A DNA stretch of 36,648 bases from Acidimicrobiia bacterium (GTDB lineage: Bacteria; Actinomycetota; Acidimicrobiia; Spongiisociales; JAHEDJ01), in NCBI GenBank assembly GCA_029210695.1, contig JARGFH010000038.1:1-36648 (forward strand), in the 5' to 3' direction. The translations under genes were made by a program, and so were the position numbers. Each line of letters opens with the position of its first letter. Position 1 is the stretch's first letter. The notes under the pieces were generated by a model. It ran no database searches and was not told where the DNA came from. It worked only from the letters and a program-made list of their open reading frames with translations. Shown in pieces: positions 17,490-32,423 of the stretch.

Positions 17490-20400
17490 CTAGCGAGCGA
17501 TGAAGTACTTTGCCTGCGGGTGATGGCAGATGATGGCCGAGGTCGTCTGTTCGGGTTGGTATTGCCATCCGGTTTCTTCACCGACCGATACACCGATTCG
17601 GTCGGCGCCGAGGAGGTCGGCGACAGTCTCATTGTCCTCGAGTTCCGGACAGGCCGGATAGCCCCACGAGTAGCGACCGCCGCGATACTTCTGACGAAAC
17701 AGTCCGGCCAGTGACGGCCCGTCCTGGTCGGCGAAGCCCCATTCCGTGCGGATGCGGTGATGCCAGTATTCGGCTAGAGCTTCGGCCATTTCCACCGCCA
17801 GACCGTGCAGATAGAGGTAGTCCTCGTAGTGGTGGCCTGCGAACAGCTCGGCCGCCCGTTCCGACGCTTGCTCGCCGACTGTGACGATGTGAAAGGCGGC
17901 GTAGTCGGCTCCGGTACCGATCGGTCGATGGAAGTCGGCAATACACAAGAACGGACTGCTTGCCTGGCGTGGGAATGTGAACCTCTTGACCTCGCGACTT
18001 CGCTCTTCGTCGGACCACACGACCAGGTCGTTGCCGTCGGCATTGACCGGGAAGTAGCCGTAGACGACCTGCGGGACCAGCAATCCGTCGCGCTTCGCCC
18101 GATCGAACTGGTCGCGCAGCACCGGCCGGATCCGGTCCTTGAAATCGCCGTCCGGTTCTCCGGGTTCGGGGCGAAAGTGCCACTGATTGCGAAACAGCGC
18201 CGTCTCGTTGAGGTACGAAGCAACTTCGTCGAGGGGAATTCCTTTCACCACCCGGGAACCGGTGAAGGGCGGATCAAAAACGTGGTTGTCGCCGGCGACC
18301 TCGGGCGACCGGCTCGGGATCGCTGCTAGCGGTGCTTCCTTGGTCCGGCGCCGGGGCAACGGCCGGCCACCCGCTACGCGACCGAAGTCGGGGTCTGTCA
18401 GGTGGGTCTCGGCGGCGATGTCGTCCATCACTGCCAGCCCGGCGAAGGCGTCCTTCCCGTAGAACAGCGGACCCGGGTAGTGCTCACGCAGGTCACGTTC
18501 GACGTACGTCCGGGTCAGCGCGGCCCCGCCGAGAATGACGGGCAGGTGGGCCAACCCCCGGTCGGACAGTTCGATCAGGTTGTCACGCATGACCAGGGTG
18601 GACTTCACCAGCAGCCCGCTCATGCCGATGGCGTCTGCGTTCACCTCCAGCGCCTTCTCGATCATCTCGGTGATGCCGACCTTGATGCCGAGGTTGTGCA
18701 CCCGGTATCCGTTATTCGTGAGGATGATGTCGACGAGGTTCTTCCCGATATCGTGAACGTCACCCTTTACCGTCGCCAAAACGATCGACCCCCTGCCGGC
18801 ACCATCGGCCTTTTCCATGTGAGGTTCCAGATAGCCGACGGCTGCCTTCATCGTCTCTGCCGACTGGAGTACGAACGGCAACTGCATATCACCGGCGGCG
18901 AACAAGTCACCCACCCTTCTCATCCCCGCCAGGAGGATGTCGTTGATGATGGTGATGGCGGACCGACCGAGGAGGGCCTCTTTGAGGTCATTGGTGAGGC
19001 CATCGCGATCGCCCTCGACGATCCGGTGCTCGAGTCTCTGTTCAACCGACCTGCCGCCGCGATCCTCTCGTTCAACAGCCGTTGCCGTCGCGCCTGCGAA
19101 GAGTTCGAGGATTCGTTCGAGCGGGTCGTAGCCGTCGGATCGGCGGTCGTAGATGAGGTCGAGCGCCGCCTGCCGCTGGTCGTCCGGAATCCGGTGGAGG
19201 GGTATGACTCTGGCGGCGTGGAGGATGGCTCCGTCGAGACCCGCTTCGAGGGCTTCGTTGAGAAACACGGAGTTCAGTACATGCCGGGCCGCCGGCTTCA
19301 GCCCGAATGACACATTTGAGATACCGAGGCTGGTGAAGGTTCCGGGGAGTTCTTCTTTGATGCTCCGGATGGCATCGAGCGTGGCCATGGCATCCCGGCG
19401 CAGATCCTCGCCGCCGGTGGTCAGTGGAAACGTGAGCGGATCGAAGATGAGATCGCCGGGTTCGAGCCCGTGTCGTTCGATAGCCAGATCGTGGATGCGG
19501 TGAGCGATCCTCATCTTCCACTCCAGATCCCGGGCCTGTCCTTCCTCATCGATGAGGAGGCAAACCACCGCGGCGCCGTATTCGCGCGCCAGAGACATGA
19601 CCCGGTCGAATCGGGAACCAGGGCCGTCGCCGTCCTCCAGATTGGCGGAGTTGAGCACGGCCCGGCCACCGATCCATCGCAGGCCGGCCTCCATGACCTC
19701 CGGCTCGGTGGAATCCAGCACGAGCGGGACGCTGATCTGGGTCGAGAAACGGGAGGCCAGTTCGTCCATGTCGGCGACTCCATCCCGTGCGACGTAGTCG
19801 ACGCAGAGGTCTACGAGATGTGCACCCTCTTTGACCTGGTCCTTGCCGGTCTGGACGCAGCCGTCCCAGTCCTCTGCCAGGAGGGTCTCGCGGAATCGCT
19901 TGGACCCGTTGGCATTGGTCCGTTCGCCGATGATGAGAAACGATGTGTCCTGCCGGAAGGGCGTGAACGAGTAGGTCGAGGCGGCGCCGGGTTCATGGCG
20001 GGCCGTACGGGCGACCGGCTGCAGGTCGGCTACCGCGTCAACGACTGCCCGGAGATGCTCCGGAGTAGTGCCACAGCATCCACCGACGACGGACACTCCA
20101 AACTCGGAGACGAACCTCGTGTGATACTCGGCGAGTTCGGCGGGCGAGAGGTTGTAGCACATCTCTCCGTCCCGGACTTCAGGGAGGCCGGCGTTGGGGA
20201 TGACCGCAATCGGCATCCGCGCCCGCTCGGAGAGGTAGCGAATGTGCTCCGTCATTTCCGTAGGCCCGGTCGCGCAGTTGAGGCCGAAGACGTCGGGGCC
20301 CAGCGGGTCGATAGCTGCCAGGGCGGCCCCAATCTCGGTTCCGGGCAGCATGCGGCCGGTCGCCTCGATCGTGACCTGTGCCTGGATTGGAAGCTGAATC

Positions 20401-20945
20401 CCCGCGCTGTGCATCGCGAGGCGTACTCCGTTGATGGCTGCCTTCAGCCCGAGCAGGTCGAACTGAGTTTCGATGATGAAGAGGTCGGCCCCCCCTTCGA
20501 GCAAGCCGAGGGCTTGTTGTTCGTAGGCAGAGCGGAGATCGACGTAGCGGATCTGACCGAGGGTGGGGAACTTCGTGCCGGGGCCGATCGAGCCGGCAAC
20601 CCAGCGGCGCCGGTGCCGGGTCGAGAAGTCGTCGGCCACTTGCCTGGCCAGGCGGGCAGCTACGACGTTGATCTCATGGACGCGATCCTCGATGCCGTAT
20701 TCGGCCAACGGGACGGCAAAGGCGCCAAATGTGTTGGTCTCGATTACATCCACACCGACGTCGAGGTAGGAGGCGTGAATCTGTTGGACGAGATCGGGGC
20801 GAGTCAGGTTGAGGAGTTCGTTGCAGCCGTCGAGGTCGGGTCCACCGAAGTCGTCTTCAGTCAGCCCGGCCAGTTGGAGGGAGGTGCCCATCGCGCCGTC
20901 GTAGATGACGACTCTGGATCTCGTGGCTTCGACGTAGCTTCTCAC
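17490..20945 (-). CDS. metH: Cobalamin-dependent methionine synthase
   Basis: DGAMGT, GLNCATGP, GGCCGTTPEH, IGERTNANGS, GDVHDIGKNLV, MSGLL and RYSWGYPACP motifs; GTG start 20945 after GAGGA RBS. Confidence 0.97.
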   Translation of the reverse strand: MRSYVEATRSRVVIYDGAMGTSLQLAGLTEDDFGGPDLDGCNELLNLTRPDLVQQIHASYLDVGVDVIETNTFGAFAVPLAEYGIEDRVHEINVVAARLARQVADDFSTRHRRRWVAGSIGPGTKFPTLGQIRYVDLRSAYEQQALGLLEGGADLFIIETQFDLLGLKAAINGVRLAMHSAGIQLPIQAQVTIEATGRMLPGTEIGAALAAIDPLGPDVFGLNCATGPTEMTEHIRYLSERARMPIAVIPNAGLPEVRDGEMCYNLSPAELAEYHTRFVSEFGVSVVGGCCGTTPEHLRAVVDAVADLQPVARTARHEPGAASTYSFTPFRQDTSFLIIGERTNANGSKRFRETLLAEDWDGCVQTGKDQVKEGAHLVDLCVDYVARDGVADMDELASRFSTQISVPLVLDSTEPEVMEAGLRWIGGRAVLNSANLEDGDGPGSRFDRVMSLAREYGAAVVCLLIDEEGQARDLEWKMRIAHRIHDLAIERHGLEPGDLIFDPLTFPLTTGGEDLRRDAMATLDAIRSIKEELPGTFTSLGISNVSFGLKPAARHVLNSVFLNEALEAGLDGAILHAARVIPLHRIPDDQRQAALDLIYDRRSDGYDPLERILELFAGATATAVEREDRGGRSVEQRLEHRIVEGDRDGLTNDLKEALLGRSAITIINDILLAGMRRVGDLFAAGDMQLPFVLQSAETMKAAVGYLEPHMEKADGAGRGSIVLATVKGDVHDIGKNLVDIILTNNGYRVHNLGIKVGITEMIEKALEVNADAIGMSGLLVKSTLVMRDNLIELSDRGLAHLPVILGGAALTRTYVERDLREHYPGPLFYGKDAFAGLAVMDDIAAETHLTDPDFGRVAGGRPLPRRRTKEAPLAAIPSRSPEVAGDNHVFDPPFTGSRVVKGIPLDEVASYLNETALFRNQWHFRPEPGEPDGDFKDRIRPVLRDQFDRAKRDGLLVPQVVYGYFPVNADGNDLVVWSDEERSREVKRFTFPRQASSPFLCIADFHRPIGTGADYAAFHIVTVGEQASERAAELFAGHHYEDYLYLHGLAVEMAEALAEYWHHRIRTEWGFADQDGPSLAGLFRQKYRGGRYSWGYPACPELEDNETVADLLGADRIGVSVGEETGWQYQPEQTTSAIICHHPQAKYFIAR

Positions 20946-20988
20946 GGCGTTCCTCGCCTCCGGTTGTTCCAACGAGGAGCGTCTCCGC

Positions 20989-21080
20989 AACCCCATCGTG
21001 CAGGCGTTGGCACCGTGTCCCCGTTGGGCCGGTTGCCGCGGTCTCACAGGGCCTGATCCCTCCACCGCTCTTGATGAGTT
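20989..21080 (-). ncRNA. SAM-I riboswitch (S-box) upstream of metH
   Basis: Minus strand reads AACTCATCAAGAGCGGTGGAGGGATCAGGCCCTGTGAGACCGCGGCAACC...GGTGCCAACGCCTGCACGATGGGGTT, with hallmark ATCAAGAG, GAGGGA, GGCAACC and GGTGCCAA; P1 is AACTCATC/GATGGGGTT. Confidence 0.93.
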
Positions 21081-21485: not shown

Positions 21486-22100
21486 ATGGATGATGAGCGC
21501 GAGGTAGGTGTCGGACCGCATCCGCGGCCATGGCCCGATGATCCGCGACTCGATCCGGAGTTACTCGAGCACGGTGATCGCCGCAACGTCGTGGACGAGT
21601 ACCGCTACTGGCGCCATGAAGCCATCGTTGAGGATCTCGACGGTCGCCGGCATCCGTTTCATGTTGCGGTCGAGAACTGGGAGCACGATTTCAACATCGG
21701 ATCGGTGGTGCGAAACGCCAACGCATTCATGGCTTCCGCCGTGCACATCATCGGGAAGCGCAAGTGGAATCGGCGCGGTGCGATGGTCACCGATAGATAC
21801 CAACACATACTCCATCATCCGACGATCGAAGGTTTCGTAGCCTGGGCGGGTGAAGCCGGGCTGACGGTGGTCGGCATCGACAACTTGCCCGGTTCTGTGC
21901 CAATCGAAACGACTGAACTCCCGGCCGGGTGCGTTCTCCTCTTCGGCCAGGAGGGCCCTGGGTTGTCGGAGGGTGCCCGGTCTGCCGCCGCCATGGTTTG
22001 TTCGATCACTCAGTACGGCTCTACGAGGTCGATCAACGCCGGCGTCGCCTCGGGGATCGCCATGCACCACTGGATACTCCAGCACCGTTTCGGCCGCTAG
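21486..22100 (+). CDS. TrmH/SpoU family RNA methyltransferase
   Basis: ENWEHDFNIGSVVRNANAF, FGQEGPGLS and GSTRSINAGVASGIAM (SPOUT motifs). Confidence 0.92.
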   Translation: MDDEREVGVGPHPRPWPDDPRLDPELLEHGDRRNVVDEYRYWRHEAIVEDLDGRRHPFHVAVENWEHDFNIGSVVRNANAFMASAVHIIGKRKWNRRGAMVTDRYQHILHHPTIEGFVAWAGEAGLTVVGIDNLPGSVPIETTELPAGCVLLFGQEGPGLSEGARSAAAMVCSITQYGSTRSINAGVASGIAMHHWILQHRFGR

Positions 22101-22185: not shown

Positions 22186-22644
22186 ATGGCATCGGTGTAT
22201 CAGATCAACATCAGCGGCGGAGGGGTCCCCAAGCTGCCGATCGACGAGGTAGACGTCGACATCAACGGCATCATCGGTGACGACCAGGCGAGCAAAGAGC
22301 ACCACGGAGGACCCGACCGGGCACTGTGTATTTTCTCGCTCGAGGTGATCGAGGCACTGCAGGCCGAAGGTCATCCGATCGCGCCCGGCTCGACGGGTGA
22401 GAACGTGACGATCGCCGGCCTGGACTGGGATCGGGTGGGGCCGGACACCAGGCTACGGATCGGACAAACGGTCGCTCAGATCACCAGCTTCACGTCGCCG
22501 TGCTGGAAGATCGTCGGTTCGTTCTCAGACCGTGACTCTGCCCGGATTAGCCAGGCGGAGTACCCCGGTTGGAGCCGCGTCTACGCCAGGGTGATCATCA
22601 GCGGAGCCATCCGGACGGGTGACGACGTCGAAGTGATCGACTAG
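22186..22644 (+). CDS. MOSC domain protein (YiiM-like)
   Basis: GVPK, GDDQ..HHGGPDRAL, GENVT, SPCWK and GAIRTGD motifs. Confidence 0.9.
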   Translation: MASVYQINISGGGVPKLPIDEVDVDINGIIGDDQASKEHHGGPDRALCIFSLEVIEALQAEGHPIAPGSTGENVTIAGLDWDRVGPDTRLRIGQTVAQITSFTSPCWKIVGSFSDRDSARISQAEYPGWSRVYARVIISGAIRTGDDVEVID

Positions 22645-22698: not shown

Positions 22699-23868
22699 CT
22701 ATGGGCCGGCAGCTGAGCGGTTCCGAAGATTCGCCCACCCAACGAGCCGCTTTGCTGCTTCGGTGATATCGGCGGTCGATTCCGCATACGAGAAGCGGAT
22801 GAAACGGTGACCCTGGGTTGGGTCGAAGTCGATTCCCGAGGTCGCCGCCACGCCGATCTCGTCGAGCCACTGCGCGCTGAGCGCCTGGGAATCGTCGGTC
22901 AGATGTGAAACGTCTGCGTACACGTAGAAGGCGCCGTCCGCCGGGGCGATCCGATCTATCCCGGCTCCGGCCAGGCCGCCAATGAGGATCCGGCGGTTCT
23001 CCGCGTAGCGGGCGACGTTGGCGTCGAGTTCCTCGGAGCAGTCGAAGGCGGCGATGCCGGCGAGTTGCGAAAGCGTCGGCGGCGAGATGAAGAGGTTCTG
23101 CGCAAGTCGCTCAACCGGCCGGATCATCTCCTCGGGTAACACGAGCCAGCCCAGCCGCCAGCCCGTCATCGAAAAGTATTTCGAGAAGCTCTGGACGACC
23201 ACCGCGTGGTCGGCCACGGCGATGACGGTTGGAGCCGGCGTGTCGCCGTATGTGATGCCGTGGTAGATCTCGTCGGCGATCATGCGGATTTCGTGTGTCT
23301 CACAGAAACCGGCGAGATCGGTGAGCTCGACCCCGGTGAGGATCGTGCCGGTGGGGTTCGAAGGAGAGGCCGTCACCAGCCCGTCGAGTGGCAGCAGCGG
23401 TTCGAGCAAATCCGGCGTTGGATTGAACCTGGTGTCCGGCCCCACCGGAAGTTCGACGACTTCGATGCCGAGGGCGCGCAGGATGTTCCGGTAGGCCGAG
23501 TAGCCGGGCTCGGTCATGGCCACACGGTCGCCTTCGTCGAATGCGGCCAGAACTGCCAGTACGAATCCGCCCGATGCCCCGACGGTCACCGCGATCCGGT
23601 CTTCGGCCACGTCGACTCCGTATCGATCGAGGTAGTGCCGGGTGATCCGTGTCCGTAGCTCGGGGACGCCGTGGGCGTCCGTGTAGCCCAGTCGATGGGA
23701 ACGCAGGGCTGCCTCGGCCGCGGCCAGCACTCCGCGCGGTGCGGGCGTCGACGGCTGACCCACCTCGAGGTGCAGCACTTCGCCGCCGGCAGCTTCCCGG
23801 CGCGCCGCCGCCTTCATGACCTCCATGACGTAGAACGGAGCAATGTCGGATCGGCGGGAGATCTTCAT
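22699..23868 (-). CDS. PLP-dependent aminotransferase class I/II
   Basis: HLEVGQP, SPSNPTG, DEIYHG, SFSKYFSMTGWRLGW and GAFY motifs; ATG 23868 overlaps the upstream stop (TGATG). Confidence 0.93.
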   Translation of the reverse strand: MKISRRSDIAPFYVMEVMKAAARREAAGGEVLHLEVGQPSTPAPRGVLAAAEAALRSHRLGYTDAHGVPELRTRITRHYLDRYGVDVAEDRIAVTVGASGGFVLAVLAAFDEGDRVAMTEPGYSAYRNILRALGIEVVELPVGPDTRFNPTPDLLEPLLPLDGLVTASPSNPTGTILTGVELTDLAGFCETHEIRMIADEIYHGITYGDTPAPTVIAVADHAVVVQSFSKYFSMTGWRLGWLVLPEEMIRPVERLAQNLFISPPTLSQLAGIAAFDCSEELDANVARYAENRRILIGGLAGAGIDRIAPADGAFYVYADVSHLTDDSQALSAQWLDEIGVAATSGIDFDPTQGHRFIRFSYAESTADITEAAKRLVGWANLRNRSAAGP

Positions 23869-24485
23869 CAGGGCGAGCGTAGCGAGCGAGCGTGTGCGGG
23901 TTCCAGCCACCGGCGCCGGGTCATGTAATACCTGGCCACCATCAAGGAGGAAGCAGCGGAGGAGAGGATCCCGAACATAACGATGGCCCGGTCCGAATAA
24001 GCGGCGCCGTACACCAGCCAGAGGAGACCTTCCACGAGAGTGAGCTGCCACGTCCCTGGACTGATTCCTTTGGGCGCCCAGGTCCTGAAGGCCGTCCACA
24101 GAGAAGGCGTCGCCTGCACTCCGAAGGAGACACCGAGCAGAACGCCCAATCCGGCCCAGCCGCCGATCACGCCGACGAGCGTGAGGATCAGCGCCCAGGA
24201 GGACCCGAGCATGACTGCCCGGGCGATGGGTCGTCCCGTCCAGGCGATCAGGCCGATCGTGAGCGTGTAGAAGAGCACCATCGAGGTGGTGGACGGAAGT
24301 GCCAGCCAGAGGTCCTGCGAGTACAGATATGCCGTCCATGCGGCGTTCGATACCATCCCGAGGCTCGCCCATGTAGTTGAGACCCCGTCGGCATTGCGCG
24401 TATTCCACAGTTTCATCACCTGAGGGACCAGCGTGACGAAGGCCAGCAGCGTTGCGAGGACGGCGGCCGAGTCGGCGATGAGCAT
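23868..24485 (-). CDS. PQ-loop (SWEET/SemiSWEET-like) membrane protein with two repeats
   Basis: LVPQVMKLWNTRNADGVS and a second repeat ATPSLWTAFRTWAPKGIS; about 7 TM; TACACT 6 nt before the ATG. Confidence 0.8.
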   Translation of the reverse strand: MLIADSAAVLATLLAFVTLVPQVMKLWNTRNADGVSTTWASLGMVSNAAWTAYLYSQDLWLALPSTTSMVLFYTLTIGLIAWTGRPIARAVMLGSSWALILTLVGVIGGWAGLGVLLGVSFGVQATPSLWTAFRTWAPKGISPGTWQLTLVEGLLWLVYGAAYSDRAIVMFGILSSAASSLMVARYYMTRRRWLEPAHARSLRSP

Positions 24486-24676
24486 CGGTGCAGTGTAGGG
24501 AGGGCCGGCGGGGCCGCTTCCATCGAAACGGTCTCCGGATCGAGGGTGGCCTAGATCGATCAGGCCTTTGGTGATCGTTTGGCCTCAACCCCGACACTAC
24601 CTGCGTGGGTCGACCAGGCCGGGTGACCGTCCGTTCCGTTTGGTGCGGGGAGGAACGACAAACCAGGAGGTGTTCT

Positions 24677-26011
24677 GTGAACCTAGCGAAGTCAAGCGAA
24701 GACCTCCATCGGCTTGTGGAGTCGGCGACCAGGTTCGGTATAGAAATGGACGAACAGGAGGCCCTGCGCTGGCTGATGGCGATGTCACTTGCCGAGGGTT
24801 CGACCGACATCGTCGTTGATGCCGGCTCGGGCGTGTTCGGGCATCGCATCTCTATGCTCGATTTCAGCCCGCATGATCTCGCCTACATCCGAACAGTGGA
24901 GACGATCGTCGAGATCCAGGACCGGGCCGGCGTAGAGACGGCCGTTGCGCTCTCCGGTTCCGCCGCCCAGTCGAAGATCCAGACGTTTCCCGGCGATTGT
25001 GACTTCTTTGAGCGGGTCAACATCCTGGCGGCCACCCGGCAGGAGGCCTGCGAGATCCTGGGGGACCTCGTGCTGCAGAAGGCGCTGTCGACCCTCGAAG
25101 GTGAGACTTATCGGCTCATAGAGGTCAAGTTCGGTGAGTATCCGGAGAGCCTTTGCCTGGGCGACCTGGAGCTTCCGGCGGGCTCGCTCATTTCCTGGGA
25201 TGTCGAAGCGCTTCGGGCCGGCGCCGTCTCGGCCTTCACTTCCGATGGCAGTCCGCGCGCCGTTACCTGGGCGGAGGCTGCCCGGCAACCGGGGTGGTGC
25301 AAGCTGGATTGGGTGGTAGCCGACCCGGTCAGAGGACACATCTCAAACGCCAGCAACATGCTCGATGCCACGTGGGAGTCACCGGACGGGGCGATCGTTC
25401 CGCTGGACGGCTACCTCGACCCCTACTTCCAGGAGGTCTACCTCGAGGCGGATTCGATACCGTTGTTCTCGAAGATCGTCAAGCAGGTCTCAACGGATGC
25501 GCTCGACACGTACGTGGGGGAGCTCGAAGCGCAAGTCCGCAAATACGTGGGCCACGAGCCGAAGAACTTTGGCAAAGCGGCCAAGCGGATGTACAACATC
25601 TTTCGACTGCAAGGGCGATATGAAGAGGCTTCGTTCCTCCGCGAGCTCTTCGACGAGCCTGCGACTGTCCTCTATCAGGTGTGGTCCCTACTCCGCAGTC
25701 TCGAGGAAGCCGCCGACCCCGGCTCTCCGATCGACCGCGATACGGTGCTGAGGCAGGCAGATGAGCTGATCCTCACCGTCGTCCGCACTCTCGAAGGCGA
25801 CGCGGAGGCTGCGATCGTCACCCACCTGTTACTCCTGCGCGACAGCATCAGCCGTGATAGAGACCTCGAAGGCAGGTCCGTCGCCGTCGCCTCGGCTCGG
25901 GAGGACCTCGTCCAACTCGTCAACGACTACTTCTACGATCGGATCACCGCAGTGCCGGCCCTGCGTGACTATGTGATGGACCTCGAATCGACCGTTCCGC
26001 CGGTCGGGTGA
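24677..26011 (+). CDS. Uncharacterised protein with Pol-beta-superfamily nucleotidyltransferase signature
   Basis: CAGGAGG RBS with GTG 24677; ALSGSAAQSKIQTFPGDCDFFE fits hG[GS]-x11-DhD; candidate third Asp in WCKLDWVV; helical C-terminal half. The CDS is secure; the function is inferred. Confidence 0.7.
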   Translation: MNLAKSSEDLHRLVESATRFGIEMDEQEALRWLMAMSLAEGSTDIVVDAGSGVFGHRISMLDFSPHDLAYIRTVETIVEIQDRAGVETAVALSGSAAQSKIQTFPGDCDFFERVNILAATRQEACEILGDLVLQKALSTLEGETYRLIEVKFGEYPESLCLGDLELPAGSLISWDVEALRAGAVSAFTSDGSPRAVTWAEAARQPGWCKLDWVVADPVRGHISNASNMLDATWESPDGAIVPLDGYLDPYFQEVYLEADSIPLFSKIVKQVSTDALDTYVGELEAQVRKYVGHEPKNFGKAAKRMYNIFRLQGRYEEASFLRELFDEPATVLYQVWSLLRSLEEAADPGSPIDRDTVLRQADELILTVVRTLEGDAEAAIVTHLLLLRDSISRDRDLEGRSVAVASAREDLVQLVNDYFYDRITAVPALRDYVMDLESTVPPVG

Positions 26012-26013
26012 AT

Positions 26014-28977
26014 TCAGTTGTGAAGGACCTGAAGAGCCAGTTCGACCGTTTGGTCTCTGCTCAGCATGCGACCGCGGCTACGGAGAGCTTCAAACTGGGT
26101 GGTCCCGAGCTCGTCCTGGAGTGAGGCGACCACATTGTCGTGGCCGGCCCGGTTGGCGGCGGGTACTGGTGCCCGGGCCACATCCCGGATCGCTTCTTCG
26201 GCTCCGTAGAGCTTCGCCGCACTGCCTGCGTCCCCTCGCCGCGTGGCGAGTACGGCGGTTGTGAAGAGCACTCTCGCCACCCCTACCGGCGAGTCGAGGT
26301 CGACGAACGCCTCCAGGGACTCGATGAGGAGGAGAGCCGCCATGTCTTCCGACCCATGCGAGGCCTCGAGGTCGGCGGTGTACTGAGCGGCGTCGGCCAC
26401 GCCCAGTCGATTCCCGAGCTGCCGGTTGATCTCGAGAGACTGATGGTGGAGATCGAGCGCGGTGTCGGCCCGCCCCTCCAGTTCGTCCACGAATCCCAGG
26501 CGAAGAAGACAATGGGCCCGCTCACGATCATCGCCGATCTTCTCGAACCGGTCTCTGGCCGCCTCGAAGTGTTCTCGCGCTGTGGCGACTTCGCCGAGGT
26601 TCACGAGTGCGATGCCGAGATTGAGCTCCGCAGTTGCTACTCCCCGGACGTCTCCGAGTGCCTCGAACATCGTCGAGGACTCCTCATATCGCTGCCTGGC
26701 TGTTGCATAATCCCCGGACTGGAGTGCCAGCACGCCGATTCCGTTCAGAACGCGAGCCACCCTCCCGGTCTCGCCTGCTCCACGTTCGATTTCCAGGGCT
26801 CGCTCCATCGAGATACGGGCGGCGGTGTAGTCGTCCATCGAGTAGGCGAGGACTCCGAGGGTCCACTCCGCTTTGGCCACGAGGTCCTCGGGAAGGTCGC
26901 GGTATCGGTCGAGCAGGTCGAGGAGGCGTTTCCTGCCCTCGGGAGCGTATCCCCGATGCATCCAGAATGAGGTGAGGGCGTCGGCCAGTTCGATCGCGGC
27001 GACGGGATTATCGGCGGTGGCACGATCTAGGGCGGCCCGGAGGTTGTCGTGGTCCTGATCGAGCCTGGCGAACCAGACCGGTTCATCGGGTCCACCTACC
27101 GAAGCAGCTGCATTTCTAGCTCCGGCCAGGTAGTAGTCGAGGTGCCGGCCTGCACAGACGCCGGTCAAATCCGCTTCATCCAGTCGGGCGGCGGCGAACT
27201 CACGCAGCGTTTCGAGAGAGCGATATCGGGTCGGCCGGTCGGGGACGATCTCTGCTTGCAGCAGCGACTTCTCGACCAGGCCGCCGATGAGGTCGAGTGT
27301 TTCTGATGTTGTTTCCCCTACATGGTGGGCAGCCTCCAGGGTGAAGCCGCCCTTGAACACCGATAAGCGGTCGAACAGCTTGCGCTCATCGTCATTCAGG
27401 AGGTCGTAGCTCCAGCGGATCGTCTCGCGGAGGGCGACATGTCGGTGCGGCAGGCCCCTGTCTCCGCGGGTCAGGAGGGAGAGTCGTTCGTCCAGTCGTT
27501 CGGCGATCTCGGGAATACTCAGCACGTTCGCCCGAGCGGCTGCAAGCTCGATGGCGAGCGGTAGGCCGTCGAGCCTGCGGCAGATCTGTCCCGCGGCCGG
27601 CAGAGTCCCGGCATCCTCTTCCAGGTCCGGATTGCGGCGCCGGGCGCGATCGATGAACAGGATGACGGCATCGGCTTTGGCGATGCCGTCGGGTGGGTCG
27701 GCCGGATCGGGGAGCCGCATCGGTGGCACGGTCCAGGAGGTCTCGCCCTGCACATTGAGACGCTGGCGGCTGGTTGCCAGCACCGAGGTGCCCTCGGGGT
27801 CGGTCGGCAGCTTCGAGAGCAGGTGGACGGATCCGTCGATGACATGTTCGCAGTTGTCGAGGATCAGAAGCGTCCGTTTCGCCCACAGGAACTTCCGGAT
27901 GGCTTCGATGACGTCTTGGCCCGGTTCCGGTGCAACGCCGAGGGTTTCTGCGACTGTGTCGGTGATCTCGTCTCCGGGCGTGAGTGGAGCGAGGTCGACG
28001 AACCAGACGCCGTCTGGGTAATCGGAGAGGAGGGATCCGCCGATCTCCAAGGCGAGTCGGGTCTTGCCGCAGCCTCCCGGCCCGGTCAGCGTGACCAGGG
28101 GACGCTGTCGGGTGAGTGCAGTGATGCGTTCGAGTTCCTGGTGCCGCCCGATGAAGGCGGTCGCGGGCGGGTCGAGGTTGGTGGGAGTCTCGGCGGACGC
28201 AGTGGTGAGGGTCAACCTGGGGTCCTGAAGCAAGATACTCTCTTCCAGGTCCTGAAGGGGTGGGCCTGGCTCGATTCCGAGTTCTTCCCCGAGGACGTCT
28301 GCCGCGCGCTTGTATGTGCGGAGAGCATCTGCTTGACGTCCTTCCCGATAGAGCGCCAGCATCAACTGCTCCCAGTGCCGCTCACGCAGCGGGTGATACT
28401 TCACGAGCTTCTCGAGTTCGGCGATCAGCCCACCGTGCTTCCCGATGGCCAGATCGGCGTCGATCCGATCGCCTATTGCACCGGCGCGAAGTTCGTCCAA
28501 TCGGGTCGCCTCGATCTGGGCTCCGTCGAGATGGCGAACGTCTGCCAGAGCATCACCGCGCCAGAGCGCCAGTGCTTCCGTCAGGGTGACGGCGGCCGCG
28601 CCCGCAGAACCAGAAGCCATGGCGGCGCGCCCCCTGCGGACCAGGTCTTCGAAACGGCTGGCATCGATGCACGCCTCGTCGACCTCGAGTGAGTATCCAC
28701 CACTTGTCGTGACGATGACGGCGGGTGATCCACCGTTGTGCTGAGCCAGCAGTTTGCGCAACTTGGCGATATAGACCTGGAGAGCCGAGGTGGCAGTTGC
28801 CGGAGGTCGAGCATCCCAGAGTCGATCTATCAAACGATCGGTGGAAACGACCCGGTTCCGATGGAGCAACAGGAGGGTTAGGAGATCCCGTTGGCGCGTG
28901 CTTCCGGGCAGGATGCTGTGGCCCCCTGCCAGCAGGTCGACCGGCCCCAATAGCCGGAACTCCATGGCTTCTGCCAT
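26014..28977 (-). CDS. AfsR/SARP family regulator: wHTH-BTAD-STAND NTPase-TPR
   Basis: FRLLGP, ALALWRG, HPLRE, LMLALYREGRQADAL, Walker A GPGGCGKT, LILDNCEH, RLDGLPLAIELAA and C-terminal TPRs. Confidence 0.93.
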   Translation of the reverse strand: MAEAMEFRLLGPVDLLAGGHSILPGSTRQRDLLTLLLLHRNRVVSTDRLIDRLWDARPPATATSALQVYIAKLRKLLAQHNGGSPAVIVTTSGGYSLEVDEACIDASRFEDLVRRGRAAMASGSAGAAAVTLTEALALWRGDALADVRHLDGAQIEATRLDELRAGAIGDRIDADLAIGKHGGLIAELEKLVKYHPLRERHWEQLMLALYREGRQADALRTYKRAADVLGEELGIEPGPPLQDLEESILLQDPRLTLTTASAETPTNLDPPATAFIGRHQELERITALTRQRPLVTLTGPGGCGKTRLALEIGGSLLSDYPDGVWFVDLAPLTPGDEITDTVAETLGVAPEPGQDVIEAIRKFLWAKRTLLILDNCEHVIDGSVHLLSKLPTDPEGTSVLATSRQRLNVQGETSWTVPPMRLPDPADPPDGIAKADAVILFIDRARRRNPDLEEDAGTLPAAGQICRRLDGLPLAIELAAARANVLSIPEIAERLDERLSLLTRGDRGLPHRHVALRETIRWSYDLLNDDERKLFDRLSVFKGGFTLEAAHHVGETTSETLDLIGGLVEKSLLQAEIVPDRPTRYRSLETLREFAAARLDEADLTGVCAGRHLDYYLAGARNAAASVGGPDEPVWFARLDQDHDNLRAALDRATADNPVAAIELADALTSFWMHRGYAPEGRKRLLDLLDRYRDLPEDLVAKAEWTLGVLAYSMDDYTAARISMERALEIERGAGETGRVARVLNGIGVLALQSGDYATARQRYEESSTMFEALGDVRGVATAELNLGIALVNLGEVATAREHFEAARDRFEKIGDDRERAHCLLRLGFVDELEGRADTALDLHHQSLEINRQLGNRLGVADAAQYTADLEASHGSEDMAALLLIESLEAFVDLDSPVGVARVLFTTAVLATRRGDAGSAAKLYGAEEAIRDVARAPVPAANRAGHDNVVASLQDELGTTQFEALRSRGRMLSRDQTVELALQVLHN

Positions 28978-29096: not shown

Positions 29097-30107
29097 TCAC
29101 GACCCCGGGCTCACCGCTCGTTCCACCACGAACTCCGCGGACTTCGCCATCGCGCGCGCCGTTGCCGGGTGGCCCGGAATCAAAGCGGGCCAGACGTGGA
29201 ACATATCCGGTTCGAGAATCAGGTCGACGTCCGCGCCGTCCCGTTTGGCCGCCTCGGCCAGGTTGAGGGAGTCGTCGAGGATCATCTCCCTCCCCCCGGC
29301 GAAAATGAGCATCGGTGCAATCCCCGTGAAGTCCCCGTACCTCGGTGAGACATACGGGTTGCGCGGGTCGGCGGTACCGATGTACTCCAGGTTGGGACGG
29401 GCATCGCCAAGGGGAAGGTAGTCCGTTTGCCAGTTCCGCCGCAGGCTCTCGCTTTGGTGTTCGAGGTCGGTGTAGGGGGAGAAGAGGATGCTGCCGGCCG
29501 GAAGGGGATGGTGCTCATCCCTGAGACGGAGCAGGAGCGCGGTGGCCAGTCCACCGCCGGCGGAGTCTCCGGCCAGAATGATCTTCCCAGGTTCGATTCC
29601 CTCTTCTAGGAGCCCCAGGTAGGCGGACAGTGCATCGTCGACCGCCGCCGGAAACGGATGCGCAGGAGCAATCCGGTAGTCGGCGACGAATGAGCGGGTG
29701 TGGGTCTCCCAGGTCAACCGGGCAACGAAGCGCCGATGGGTGGCCGGGTTGCCTGAGAGGTACGCACCGCCGTGGAGGTAGAGGATGGTCGCCCGGTCAT
29801 CCAGGTGGCCGCCCCGTTCATGCCATTCCCCTCGTATGGATCCGACGGATCCCGGGCGCACCGCGACCAGGTCGCGCAGGCTCCGCGGTAGACGGGGATT
29901 GAAACTCGCCTCGAGTGCTCTCCGTTCGGCTCTGTCGCCGCCGACGGCGCTCGCCATGATGAAGGCGCGCAGGGCCACCACCGTCATCTCTACCGACCAT
30001 GACCAGGTCGGGACGACGGGGCCTCTGAAGATCCGGTGGAAGGTCCGGCCGACGACTGCAACGAGTACGGCCAGCGCCAGGCGAATAATGAGTCTGATTC
30101 TTCCCAT
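29097..30107 (-). CDS. Alpha/beta hydrolase (HSL-family esterase/lipase) with N-terminal hydrophobic extension
   Basis: LHGGAY, DYRIAP, GDSAGG nucleophile and MFHVW; ATG 30107 lies 6 nt after TATCGT. Confidence 0.9.
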   Translation of the reverse strand: MGRIRLIIRLALAVLVAVVGRTFHRIFRGPVVPTWSWSVEMTVVALRAFIMASAVGGDRAERRALEASFNPRLPRSLRDLVAVRPGSVGSIRGEWHERGGHLDDRATILYLHGGAYLSGNPATHRRFVARLTWETHTRSFVADYRIAPAHPFPAAVDDALSAYLGLLEEGIEPGKIILAGDSAGGGLATALLLRLRDEHHPLPAGSILFSPYTDLEHQSESLRRNWQTDYLPLGDARPNLEYIGTADPRNPYVSPRYGDFTGIAPMLIFAGGREMILDDSLNLAEAAKRDGADVDLILEPDMFHVWPALIPGHPATARAMAKSAEFVVERAVSPGS

Positions 30108-30198
30108 CCCACCACGATACGCCGCTCGAATGACAGTGTTGGTTCCTGTGGCCATCCGTCGATTCAACGAACACCCGGGCCGCTAGCCTCAACTGCTT

Positions 30199-31425
30199 AT
30201 GGGGCGCTTCCTGGTCAGGCGGATCATTTCCTCGGTCATCACCCTATTTCTGTTCGCCACCGTGGTCTTCTTCGTCGCCAAGGTCATGATGCCGGGCGAT
30301 TTCACGAACAACTTCATGCCGGGTCTCGGAGAAGGGAGAGCCGAGCTCCAGGCAGAGTTGGGTCTCGACCGGCCCCTTTTCGAGCAATGGTGGCGGTTCA
30401 TGGAGAGCTTCGTTCGGGGGCGCTTCGGGGAGACAACCGACGGACGTCCGATTCTCGACCTCATGACAACTCTGCTGCCGTGGAGCCTTCTGATCTTCAC
30501 GCTCTCGATCGGCCTGGCGTTCTTGACCGGCCACTGGCTCGGCAAGGTCGTCGGCTGGTCGAAGAGCCGTCGGCTGAAGGCCATCATCCGCCTGGGTGCA
30601 GTGACGACCCACACGCTCTTTCCCCCGTTCCTCACCTTCGTGCTGGCGGTCGCCTGGATCAACCTGGCCGGTCTGGCCGGTCGCAGCGCCATGATCAGCC
30701 TCGCCGACGTCGATCAGGGTGCGATCAGGGTCGGGAGATCTTTCATGATCCTGCCGACCACGGGTGACCCTCTGCTCTGGCAGATGTCCGCCGCCTTCGT
30801 CGTGACCGGGATCGTGGTTCTGAGTATGCAGAGGCCCTTCCTGCGATTGTTCCGGCGTCGCATTCCCGGGTGGGTTCTGTTCCTCCTGTGGGTTGGACTC
30901 AACCTGGCTTTCTGGCAGTACCTCGGCGAACGCGCCAAGGCTCTCGACGTTCTCTTTCTGCTTTCCCTCCCGTTGCTGGCAGTCGCCATACTGACGATCG
31001 GAGAGATCATCCTCGTGGTGGAAGCAGCCATGGACGGAGTGGCTCAGGAGGCCTATATACATACGGCGCGGGCCATCGGCATGCCGGAGAAGCAGGTACG
31101 CAACCGCCATGCGGCAAGAGTGGCGCTGCTACCCGCCCTCAGCCGTTTCGTCGTTTCGTTGCCGTTCGTACTGTCGGGCCTGGTCATCGTCGAGTATGCC
31201 TTCTCGGTACCCGCCCACTACGGAGCATCGATCAACTTCCCCGGGTTGAGCTCGGTGCTGTTCGCTTCGCTGCAGGCGAGGGACTACCCGCTAGTAGTAG
31301 GAGGCTTGCTATTCATCGGGTTGATCTCGGTGGGAGCCCGGATCGTGCTCGACGTGCTGCACGCCATGCTCGATCCTCGAACCCGCTACGGCCAGACCGA
31401 CCGGCCGACTGAGATGGCGATATGA
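30199..31425 (+). CDS. DppB/OppB-like ABC permease
   Basis: FLVRRI, MPGD, LGLDRPLFEQW, YIHTARAIG, IVEYAFS..PGL, RDYPLV and LDPR motifs. Confidence 0.88.
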   Translation: MGRFLVRRIISSVITLFLFATVVFFVAKVMMPGDFTNNFMPGLGEGRAELQAELGLDRPLFEQWWRFMESFVRGRFGETTDGRPILDLMTTLLPWSLLIFTLSIGLAFLTGHWLGKVVGWSKSRRLKAIIRLGAVTTHTLFPPFLTFVLAVAWINLAGLAGRSAMISLADVDQGAIRVGRSFMILPTTGDPLLWQMSAAFVVTGIVVLSMQRPFLRLFRRRIPGWVLFLLWVGLNLAFWQYLGERAKALDVLFLLSLPLLAVAILTIGEIILVVEAAMDGVAQEAYIHTARAIGMPEKQVRNRHAARVALLPALSRFVVSLPFVLSGLVIVEYAFSVPAHYGASINFPGLSSVLFASLQARDYPLVVGGLLFIGLISVGARIVLDVLHAMLDPRTRYGQTDRPTEMAI

Positions 31426-32423
31426 AACGCCGGTCATGGTGGAGCATCGCATGGGTGCGGTTCCGGTCGAACAAGCTGGCAATGTTCGGCGTGTTCCTCA
31501 TCGGCATGTATGCGGCAGCTGCCTTCGTGCATCCGATCTTGATGGCAACGGTCTGGGATCGCGACACCTACCACCCGATCTACGGGCATGACGACGTCAT
31601 CGTCCAGAAGGAAGTCGTCCTGGTTGTGACCGACGATGACACACAAATTCAACTGATGCGGGCCCGGATGGTGAATCCGTTCGTTGAAGTCGGTGAATCA
31701 GTGTCCGAGGTCACCCTCCCCGAACCGTTCACGGTCGAGCATCCGCTCGGTGTGGACAATCTTGGACGGGACGTCTTGTCGATGGTGCTGGCGGCGAGCA
31801 CTCCGAGTTTTGTGGTCGGCCTTTCCGCGGCGATCACGACCGCGGTCGTCGGGCTGCTGGTGGCGACGACTGCTGCGTATTGGCGAGGGCCGACCGACAT
31901 GATCCTGACCGAGGTGTCCGACACCCTCCAACTGCTCCCGGCGCCCTTACTGATGGTTATTCTCGGTGCCGGGCCGTTTCGGGATTCGCTCGGTCCACTT
32001 GCCTTCGGGTTGATCTACGGTGTCGTCGCCGGGGCATCGGGTGCGGCCATCGTGCTGCGGAGCCAGGCCTTGAGCGTGTTGAGCAGACCATTCATCGACG
32101 CCACCCGTGTGGCGGGGGCGGGTGCCAAACAGATCATTCTGAGGCATCTGTTGCCGCATCTGGTGCCGGTGGCAGCCCTCTACATGTTGCTCGGCGCCAG
32201 CGGAGCAATCGTGGCGGATGGGTTCGTGTCGTTTCTCGGCTTCAGCAACACCCGGCTGAACTGGGGAACCATCATCTTCTTTGCCATGTCGCTCCCTCCG
32301 GCCAACCGGGCCGGGATTCCGTGGGAAGCGATCATCGCCGCTGCGGGTGCAATCAGCCTGTTTTCTGCGGCGTTCTACCTGGTTGGTTTGGGGTTCCGAG
32401 ACATCGCCCGGGCAACCGACTGA
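31422..32423 (+). CDS. DppC/OppC-like ABC permease
   Basis: ATGA overlap; RFRSNKLAMFG, HPLGVDNLGRDV, FIDATRVAGA, RHLLPH and SFLG..WG motifs. Confidence 0.88.
   Translation: MKRRSWWSIAWVRFRSNKLAMFGVFLIGMYAAAAFVHPILMATVWDRDTYHPIYGHDDVIVQKEVVLVVTDDDTQIQLMRARMVNPFVEVGESVSEVTLPEPFTVEHPLGVDNLGRDVLSMVLAASTPSFVVGLSAAITTAVVGLLVATTAAYWRGPTDMILTEVSDTLQLLPAPLLMVILGAGPFRDSLGPLAFGLIYGVVAGASGAAIVLRSQALSVLSRPFIDATRVAGAGAKQIILRHLLPHLVPVAALYMLLGASGAIVADGFVSFLGFSNTRLNWGTIIFFAMSLPPANRAGIPWEAIIAAAGAISLFSAAFYLVGLGFRDIARATD

Follow-up and report, generated by a model that had tools for sequence, protein, structure and literature searches.

An orphan Mg662-type Pol-beta nucleotidyltransferase gene in an Acidimicrobiia genome and its exonuclease-linked relatives

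We analysed a 36,648-nucleotide stretch of DNA from an Acidimicrobiia bacterium (GenBank assembly GCA_029210695.1, contig JARGFH010000038.1, positions 1 to 36,648), referred to here as the window, and in it a forward-strand gene at positions 24677 to 26011. The modelled structure of its 444-residue product supports a two-lobed Pol-beta-fold nucleotidyltransferase (NTase). The protein belongs to an unnamed, tightly constrained family found in hundreds of bacterial species, in which about a quarter of the residues are nearly invariant. Fold comparison and profile alignment show a kinship with viral proteins, which suggests homology with the Mg662/'Megaviridae ORFan' NTases found in giant viruses and with virophage proteins. 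At a probability of about 0.4, our preferred reading is that the protein would be a template-independent enzyme that condenses nucleoside triphosphates (NTPs), probably into a 2'-5'-linked product, and that the window holds an orphan copy of it.

The gene, its predicted fold and its putative active site

We found that 24677-26011 on the forward strand translates into 444 residues with zero internal stops. The GTG start is preceded by a Shine-Dalgarno-like AGGAGG, and the GC content at third codon positions is 0.77, compared with 0.63 overall GC in the window. The first-pass annotation had described a 444-residue open reading frame (ORF) with a strong ribosome-binding site, and these observations bear it out. 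An alternative GTG lies upstream at 24605 and would add 24 residues. We prefer the start at 24677 because alignments of relatives begin at about residue 6-9 of the protein, and because the closest relative (P0003, 91% identical; another relative, P0004, is 77% identical) is likewise 444 residues long. The gene is single-copy in its own 3.9-Mb, 97.85%-complete assembly. A promoter scan of the gene gave zero promoter-like sites, and the lone terminator-like hairpin lies upstream of it and is no more than shuffled sequence yields. Among the sequencing runs that contain the window genome no RNA run was listed, and the genome makes up only small shares of these runs, in sediment metagenomes.

Conservation was assessed over 163 related loci (80 from genomes, 80 from metagenomes, the window and 2 more) and over 28 distant representatives, which are full-length proteins taken from 50%-identity clusters and are 27-50% identical to the window protein. 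Across the 163 loci, conservation reaches 95% or more in 103 of the 444 columns, and the window protein deviates at only three of them, each time conservatively (L90V, E286Q, T341S). The gene is real and intact and is under strong constraint. Its features are as follows.

24665..24670, forward strand: Shine-Dalgarno-like AGGAGG, 6 nt ahead of the GTG start, read directly from the sequence
24677..26011, forward strand: target gene (P0001), uncharacterised Mg662/L544-type Pol-beta nucleotidyltransferase, 444 residues
24677..24862, forward strand: N-terminal helical region (residues 1-62), not covered by the Mg662 alignment; W32 and G55 conserved
24863..25492, forward strand: predicted catalytic alpha/beta lobe, residues about 63-272, with Pol-beta matches over about 64-253
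24956..25003, forward strand: hG[GS]...DxD motif (G94, S95, D107, D109), in 163 of 163 loci
25121..25123, forward strand: E149, candidate third carboxylate on the strand after the long helix; Glu in 157 and Asp in 1 of 163 loci
25307..25309, forward strand: D211 in K-L-D-W, candidate third carboxylate; Asp in 162 and Glu in 1 of 163 loci
25358..25462, forward strand: bacteria-specific segment, residues about 228-262, with no counterpart in a virophage-like protein (hhalign)
25493..25990, forward strand: predicted C-terminal all-helical lobe, residues about 273-438; the Mg662 alignment reaches 436-440
25574..25606, forward strand: basic/aromatic patch K300, R304, Y306, N307 and R310, each in 163 of 163 loci

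An AlphaFold model built from a 64-sequence alignment reached a mean predicted local distance difference test score (pLDDT) of 92.1 and a predicted template modelling score of 0.90; a single-sequence model (pLDDT 48) was not used. The model runs from a strand (86-93) and a helix (94-98) through a strand (107-117), a helix (121-138) and a strand (145-154) to hairpins, two strands (208-216 and 221-234) and the all-helical lobe (275-438). When the model was compared with 48,161 chains, the best match was 4xul_A, the Megavirus chilensis Mg662 protein with GTP (Z 20.6, root-mean-square deviation (rmsd) 3.6 Å, 302 residues aligned, model residues 63-436), and after it came only helical bundles at Z of 9.3 or less. 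Re-scoring of a Foldseek list added 4ams (Z 20.9, rmsd 3.5, 304 aligned) and 4amq (Z 18.8). We call these three entries 'L544-like', in part after the name of one BFVD row.

Matches to cellular enzymes were confined to the catalytic lobe (about 64-253, with 104-125 residues aligned). They include Pla1 and yeast poly(A) polymerase (PAP) at Z 6.6-6.8, Pol lambda at 6.7, Pol mu at 6.5, Tailor and TUT7 at 6.4, cGAS at 6.3, and DncV and CdnB at 6.0-6.1. The Foldseek list also holds TENT5/FAM46, a tRNA nucleotidyltransferase and MB21D2, and the ESM Atlas gave only weak leads to NTP_transf_2, RlaP and DncV-like clusters (TM-score at most 0.35). No known cellular Pol-beta branch is favoured by the predicted structure.

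The first-pass annotation had placed the protein in the Pol-beta superfamily as a full-size, two-lobed enzyme and not a minimal nucleotidyltransferase (MNT) antitoxin. The fold comparison and the invariant G-S and DxD agree with the first point, and the length, the helical second lobe of the confident model and the absence of a HEPN domain from 14 neighbouring ORFs agree with the second. It had also pointed to cGAS/DncV-like nucleotidyltransferases (CD-NTases), 2'-5'-oligoadenylate synthetase (OAS) and the adenylyl cyclase CyaA. A specific kinship with these was not shown: the nearest structures are of the Mg662 type (Z 18.8-20.9), and cGAS and DncV are no closer than the poly(A) polymerases.

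Further viral matches came from other searches. In BFVD, 18 viral models matched at E of 1e-3 or less, and those with the better scores come from virophages or are mimivirus-like. Among the 18 are models from Zamilon, Mavirus and the Yellowstone Lake and Qinghai Lake virophages, a 'V21 virophage-like protein', and several mimivirus-like proteins, one of them named 'L544-like helical domain-containing protein'. Only three IMG/VR contigs gave a sequence match, partial and virophage-like; on the two of these whose ORFs were listed (L086 and L088), the matching ORF neighbours a packaging-ATPase-like gene. An hhalign comparison of the family profile with the virophage-like ORF of L086 (7569-8792) gave a probability of 94.9% and E 4.7e-8 over 190 columns. 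This alignment pairs the G-S...DxD regions, I-E-V-K-F-G with I-E-F-K-L-Q, and K-L-D-W-V-V with K-I-D-Y-V-I.

We found that the residues expected of a Pol-beta active site are kept throughout the family. In the model, L-S-G94-S95 forms the junction of strand 86-93 and helix 94-98, and D107-C-D109-F lies on strand 107-117. A G[GS]-x-DxD pattern could arise randomly, but G94, S95, D107 and D109 are each present in all 163 loci and in 27, 28, 28 and 28 of the 28 distant representatives, which places the motif beyond chance. Also invariant over the 163 loci are K209, W212, D230, W233, D244, D248, Q252, Y255, Y279, K300, R304, Y306, N307 and R310. D244, R304, Y306 and N307, like S95, D107 and D109, are each kept in 28 of the 28 representatives. 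D230, W233, D244, D248, Q252 and Y255 all fall within the segment at 228-262. The annotated coordinates of the G94-S95...D107-x-D109 motif (nt 24956-25003) proved exact, and the K-L-D-W-V-V strand and the basic patch that it had named were located in the translation as K209-L-D211-W and K300..R310.

There are two candidates for the third carboxylate, E149 (I-E-V) and D211 (L-D-W), and both fit h[DE]h. The annotation had chosen D211. This position is Asp or Glu in all 163 loci, but it is acidic in only 20 of the 28 distant representatives, and E149, acidic in 24 of the 28, is a rival candidate. In the alignment with the virophage-like protein, E149 pairs with a Glu and D211 with the Asp of K-I-D-Y. 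Covariation links these positions: 211 is never Asp in the 6 representatives that have Asp at 149 (they carry G, E, A, S, S and N there), and 27 of the 28 have an acid at one or both positions. These patterns suggest that E149 and D211 may be neighbouring side chains that share the third-carboxylate role. The K300-R310 patch, in which K-A-A-K-R-M-Y-N pairs with K-S-L-K-R-M-Y-S of the virophage-like protein, may be the NTP-binding face of the helical lobe, a role that we assume by analogy with PAP, OAS and cGAS.

The same residues bear on the idea that the protein is a nucleotide-binding regulator, a sensor of GTP or another NTP that does not turn over. Some Mab21-like proteins are thought to be non-turnover nucleotide sensors, MB21D2 is among the Foldseek matches, and the PDB title for Mg662 records crystals with GTP bound. 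Mimivirus L544 is listed among 'transcription regulators' in the part of PMC11522460 drawn on here. However, the family-wide retention of DxD, of G-S and of an acid at 149 or 211 would not be needed for binding alone, and we consider a purely regulatory role improbable.

Searches with the protein returned zero matches in Pfam, NCBIfam, PADLOC and PDB sequences at E of 10 or less. The family profile searched against PDB sequences gave no NTase match at E of 10 or less and only weak helical-bundle matches (E at least 0.047). The statement that the protein has no obvious family was therefore correct, and it falls into no characterised housekeeping family. A word-indexed protein search found at least 5991 relatives at E of 1e-3 or less among the 8000 candidates scored; the top matches are about 60% identical, carry Chloroflexota, Anaerolineae or Acidimicrobiia labels, and are all 'hypothetical'. 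An exhaustive search of 50%-identity representatives gave 516 clusters, 143 of them at E of 1e-30 or less, and relatives are encoded in at least 580 species genomes. The window NTase scores 658 bits against the family hidden Markov model (HMM) and is 55-61% identical to the proteins of the 80 genome loci; proteins from different phyla are about 60% identical. Sampling of 301 genomes in the window's phylum found the gene in 3 (the window genome, G119 and G195), and 30 of 151 genomes from the class that contains Levilinea have it. Zero tblastn matches were obtained in 72,556 plasmid and 50,697 phage records.

A few family members are unusual. Two distant proteins (P0204 and P0246) begin with signal-peptide-like hydrophobic segments, and in two others (P0164 and P0241) the NTase lies at the C-terminal end of proteins of 1067 and 1291 residues, after PQQ_2 or AbfB and FBA (with lectin/PLAT) domains. 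Such features hint that members of those branches act outside the cytoplasm or have functions related to glycans. Signs of decay were seen in G372, where the NTase match contains an in-frame TAG, and in G346 and G380, where it is split in two pieces.

A recurrent exonuclease neighbour and the proposed product

The NTase of many relatives is not alone. Scored with an HMM of the upstream gene, a DEDDh exonuclease of the type called Cap18, known from the cyclic oligonucleotide-based antiphage signalling system (CBASS), is adjacent in 90 of the 163 loci. It is missing despite room in 55, and in 18 the contig is too short to decide. Most of the 90 exonuclease genes (84) share the strand of the NTase and lie upstream of it; 1 lies downstream in the same orientation, and 5 are encoded on the opposite strand. 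Among the 80 genome loci the exonuclease is adjacent in 61, directly upstream on the same strand in 60, and in 4 of the other 19 the contig end is too close. The pair persists amid differing flanks, among them dnaG-sigA with glyQS, DUF3786, and a 2H phosphoesterase with DUF1232. On a FastTree tree adjacency needs a minimum of 12 changes, of which well-supported branches force 7, compared with 44 for shuffled labels, and so few changes mean that whole clades lack the exonuclease. Thus the earlier description of the NTase as stand-alone fits the window genome and fails in many relatives.

Other genes recur downstream of the NTase. A DUF3786 gene follows it on the same strand in 25 of the 163 loci (L007-L165), in at least three separate clades, one of which is without the exonuclease. 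A 2H phosphoesterase and DUF1232 pair follows it in one 14-locus clade only. We considered the 2H phosphoesterase as an independent clue to 2'-5' chemistry and rejected it because all 14 loci are one clade. Candidates for an alternative partner in loci without the exonuclease (ComEA-like, ComEC, aldehyde dehydrogenase, PRPP synthetase and hydrolases) track close relatedness, and none is common to the window. In L036 the exonuclease is split into two frames, a further sign of decay. The same order of exonuclease, NTase and DUF3786 as in L011 and L025 occurs on a 7.5-kb contig labelled as a Methanosarcinales archaeon (L015), except that one additional ORF is predicted between the first two genes. 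In the tree the L015 NTase nests with those of L011 and L025, and the contig probably comes from an Anaerolineae genome and was binned with an archaeon.

Over 172 residues the partner matches the Cap18 protein of E. coli upec-117 (7t2s), with E 3.1e-39. Its match to the 'Exonuclease' model that PADLOC holds for CBASS has E 4e-62, and it also scores against RNase_T and Rv2179c-like exoribonuclease models. In the part of a preprint that we draw on (bioRxiv 10.1101/2025.03.04.641389, 2026 version), CBASS Exo proteins, which are about 40% identical to the NTase's partner, are reported to hydrolyse 2'-5'-linked dinucleotides and 2'-5'-oligoadenylate (2-5A) with little activity on 3'-5' dinucleotides. 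The same part describes the 2'-5' preference for all three Exo homologues tested, the 7t2s protein included, and states that with the S. marcescens Exo nuclease activity could not be detected on either DNA or RNA. It proposes that Exo removes a linear intermediate and so sets a threshold for cGAS-like enzymes. A literature search found no paper on a pair of DEDDh exonuclease and nucleotidyltransferase in Anaerolineae.

Our preferred reading combines these observations. D107 and D109, with E149 and/or D211, would hold two metal ions, and the K300/R304/Y306/N307/R310 face of the helical lobe would hold the NTP. Nucleotides would then be joined without a template, most likely into a short 2'-5'-linked di- or oligonucleotide that serves as a signal or a metabolic intermediate. 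In most relatives the neighbouring Cap18-type exonuclease might trim or destroy this product. The 2'-5' linkage is proposed solely from the reported specificity of the partner exonuclease.

In the window genome this partner was not found. The HMM found no partner-type exonuclease in the window, and the best match in the whole 97.85%-complete genome, which falls within a 606-codon frame of a different contig, scored 23.7 bits, compared with about 180-310 for linked copies. The window genome, G119 and G195 each gave no exonuclease protein match at E of 1e-5 or less. Seven other genomes have an NTase locus without the exonuclease; 5 of them hold an exonuclease homologue elsewhere and 2 do not. 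These homologues are 42% identical in G341 and 32-35% identical in three others, and in G384 the homologue sits beside a second NTase paralogue. G384, an Anaerolineae genome, has two NTase paralogues, one with an adjacent Cap18-like exonuclease (C47:109501-111359) and one without (L013). The window's NTase gene is an orphan in an actinobacterial genome, its partner absent and the gene not tied to its neighbours. Such an exonuclease-free copy is a natural experiment on a synthase without its usual partner.

Several points weigh against the proposed 2'-5' synthesis. The 55 loci that have room for an exonuclease and lack one keep every catalytic residue, which means that the function of the enzyme does not need the exonuclease. 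The 2'-5' argument depends on one preprint, as far as we draw on it, whose Exo proteins share about 40% identity with the partner, and that partner is absent here. In structure, cGAS, DncV and OAS are no closer to the protein than poly(A) polymerases and terminal uridylyltransferases (TUTases) are. No receptor or effector gene is linked to the NTase, in the window or in relatives. The signal-peptide-like N-termini and carbohydrate-binding fusions of some members fit a cytoplasmic signal poorly. Literature searches found no biochemical data on the family or on Mg662, and no functional study of Mg662/L544.

The same evidence can be read in terms of RNA or DNA 3' ends. The protein would then be a tailing enzyme, a non-canonical poly(N) polymerase or terminal transferase, and the DEDDh partner would trim, so that the two form a tail-and-trim module. 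The fold data allow tailing equally: the catalytic lobe scores Z 6.2-6.8 against yeast and human PAP, Pla1, Tailor, TUT7, GLD-2 and Pol mu/lambda, at least as high as against cGAS and DncV, and TENT5/FAM46 and a tRNA nucleotidyltransferase are in the Foldseek list. The partner's scores against RNase_T and Rv2179c-like models, the housekeeping setting beside glyQS and dnaG-sigA in relatives, and the clade of 14 loci with a 2H ('2'-5' RNA ligase') phosphoesterase downstream point in the same direction. However, that 2H gene is limited to one clade, and a Pfam scan detected no RNA-binding domain. Moreover, the closest characterised relatives of the partner are in the CBASS Exo clade, where the preprint, in the part used here, reports no detectable activity of the S. 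marcescens protein on DNA or RNA and a 2'-5' preference in all three homologues. We regard tailing as the most serious alternative, though an unlikely one.

Far less probable is that the gene is a minimal anti-phage defence gene, a CBASS-like signal synthase with its effector elsewhere. Elsewhere, members of the partner's family are known from CBASS operons, and the distribution is patchy, as the counts for the window's phylum and the class of Levilinea show. Yet the NTase has zero PADLOC match, neither the window nor the relatives have an effector next to it, and no plasmid or phage copies were found. Conservation is extreme, both in the share of near-invariant columns and in the identity kept between phyla, and the gene lies among housekeeping genes and not in a defence island. 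Given this conservation and this setting, a defence role is unlikely.

A broader form of 2'-5' synthesis is more doubtful than the enzymatic reading itself. Many Chloroflexota and a few Actinomycetota might run a chromosomal, non-defence 2'-5' nucleotide pathway whose synthase family is shared only with giant viruses and virophages. The Cap18-type exonuclease, where present, would set the level, and the synthase would work alone in the window genome. If this were true, the 2'-5' product would have a cellular role independent of CBASS, with a receptor still to find. The recurrent pairing with relatives of 2'-5'-preferring exonucleases makes 2'-5' nucleotides outside phage defence a testable idea. 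Since the only close structural kin are the viral ORFans, the function of the bacterial enzyme would also annotate these giant-virus and virophage proteins. The gene is interesting mainly as a tractable entry to the nucleotide chemistry of an uncharacterised branch of a known superfamily.

Genomic setting in the window and in the phylum

The neighbours of the NTase gene in the window are as follows.

17490-21065, reverse strand: metH
21486-22100, forward strand: SpoU methylase
22186-22644, forward strand: MOSC protein
22699 to about 23780, reverse strand: aminotransferase
23868-24485, reverse strand: PQ-loop/SemiSWEET-like membrane protein, divergent relative to the target gene
26014-28977, reverse strand: SARP/BTAD-NB-ARC-TPR regulator, convergent with the target gene, stop codons 2 nt apart
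29097-30167, reverse strand: alpha/beta hydrolase
30199-31425 and 31422-32423, forward strand: ABC permeases

We scanned 14 neighbouring ORFs and found no Cap2, Cap3, effector, HORMA, HEPN or other CBASS or defence domain, in agreement with the first-pass annotation, which had noted no adjacent CBASS Cap2, Cap3 or effector gene and no HEPN gene. None of the neighbours in the window recurs beside the NTase in relatives. A 716-codon open frame on the reverse strand (22699-24849) overlaps the 5' end of the target gene. Its aminotransferase match is confined to the C-terminal part (residues 358-702), and the PQ-loop/SemiSWEET-like gene sits inside its span in a different frame; because the match is partial and a separate gene lies in the span, we consider this frame a high-GC artefact and the gene overlap not real.

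The convergent regulator is an AfsR-like protein of 987 residues, and SARP-type regulators are often tied to secondary metabolism. This neighbour, together with other observations, could suggest that the NTase transfers a nucleotidylyl or phospho group to an acceptor, which may be a protein, a glycan or a small molecule, much as aminoglycoside and lincosamide nucleotidyltransferases, GlnE-type adenylyltransferases or LicD/fukutin-type enzymes do. The fusions behind AbfB, FBA, lectin or PQQ-like domains (P0241 and P0164) and the signal-peptide-like starts of P0204 and P0246 are compatible with such transfer, and the invariant bacteria-specific segment with D230, W233, D244, D248, Q252 and Y255 could form an acceptor pocket. 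However, the regulator is not beside the NTase gene in the two other carrier genomes of the window's phylum, no biosynthetic or resistance genes recur beside the NTase, and the recurrent exonuclease has no obvious role on such substrates. We judge acceptor transfer to be quite unlikely, less so than a regulator without turnover.

The NTase copies of the window's phylum probably came by transfer. The three copies compared (the window, L090 and L089) lie in DNA of 63%, 66% and 37% GC and have no flanking gene in common. In the trees the window copy stands alone on a long branch at the base of the main clade, and L089 falls inside an Anaerolineae set (Shimodaira-Hasegawa approximate likelihood ratio test (SH-aLRT) 98). 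L090 groups with two Acidimicrobiia metagenome-assembled genomes (SH-aLRT 97-98), as does the same-order genome G119 with two such genomes. An approximately unbiased test does not reject one clade for the window, L089 and L090 (p 0.34), and separate acquisitions within the phylum are therefore not established. L089 belongs to a 1.6-Mb genome of the same phylum with 37% GC (G195), which is without the exonuclease. Its NTase is about 60% identical to that of the window over most of its length and is flanked by two alpha/beta hydrolase genes.

Comparison with known systems

The nearest likeness is to the Mg662/'Megaviridae ORFan' proteins (4XUL, 4AMS and 4AMQ), which share the whole predicted two-lobed architecture (Z 18.8-20.9, 291-304 residues aligned, rmsd 3.5-3.7), at an identity of only 10-12%. 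With the virophage-like protein the G-S...DxD, h-E-h, K-h-D-[WY] and K-x-x-K-R-M-Y-[NS] motifs align. Compared with these viral NTases, the bacterial proteins add the 62-residue N-terminal region and the invariant segment of about 35 residues at 228-262.

Two-lobed enzymes of the PAP and OAS1 type resemble the target in the catalytic lobe (Z 6.2-6.8) and in a helical lobe with a conserved basic/aromatic patch. In contrast to them, the target has no sequence-level match, no PAP-associated or OAS1_C domain match and no RNA-binding module.

Like the CD-NTases of CBASS, the target has a predicted Pol-beta fold with a helical second lobe. As in the CBASS systems with Cap18/Exo of E. coli upec-117, S. 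marcescens and V. cholerae, an exonuclease from this same clade accompanies the NTase in relatives. Unlike a CD-NTase, the target matches no CD-NTase model (zero in Pfam and zero in PADLOC at E of 10 or less) and reaches cGAS and DncV only at Z of about 6. Unlike a CBASS operon, its locus has no Cap2, Cap3, HORMA or effector gene beside the NTase, and in the window Exo is missing as well.

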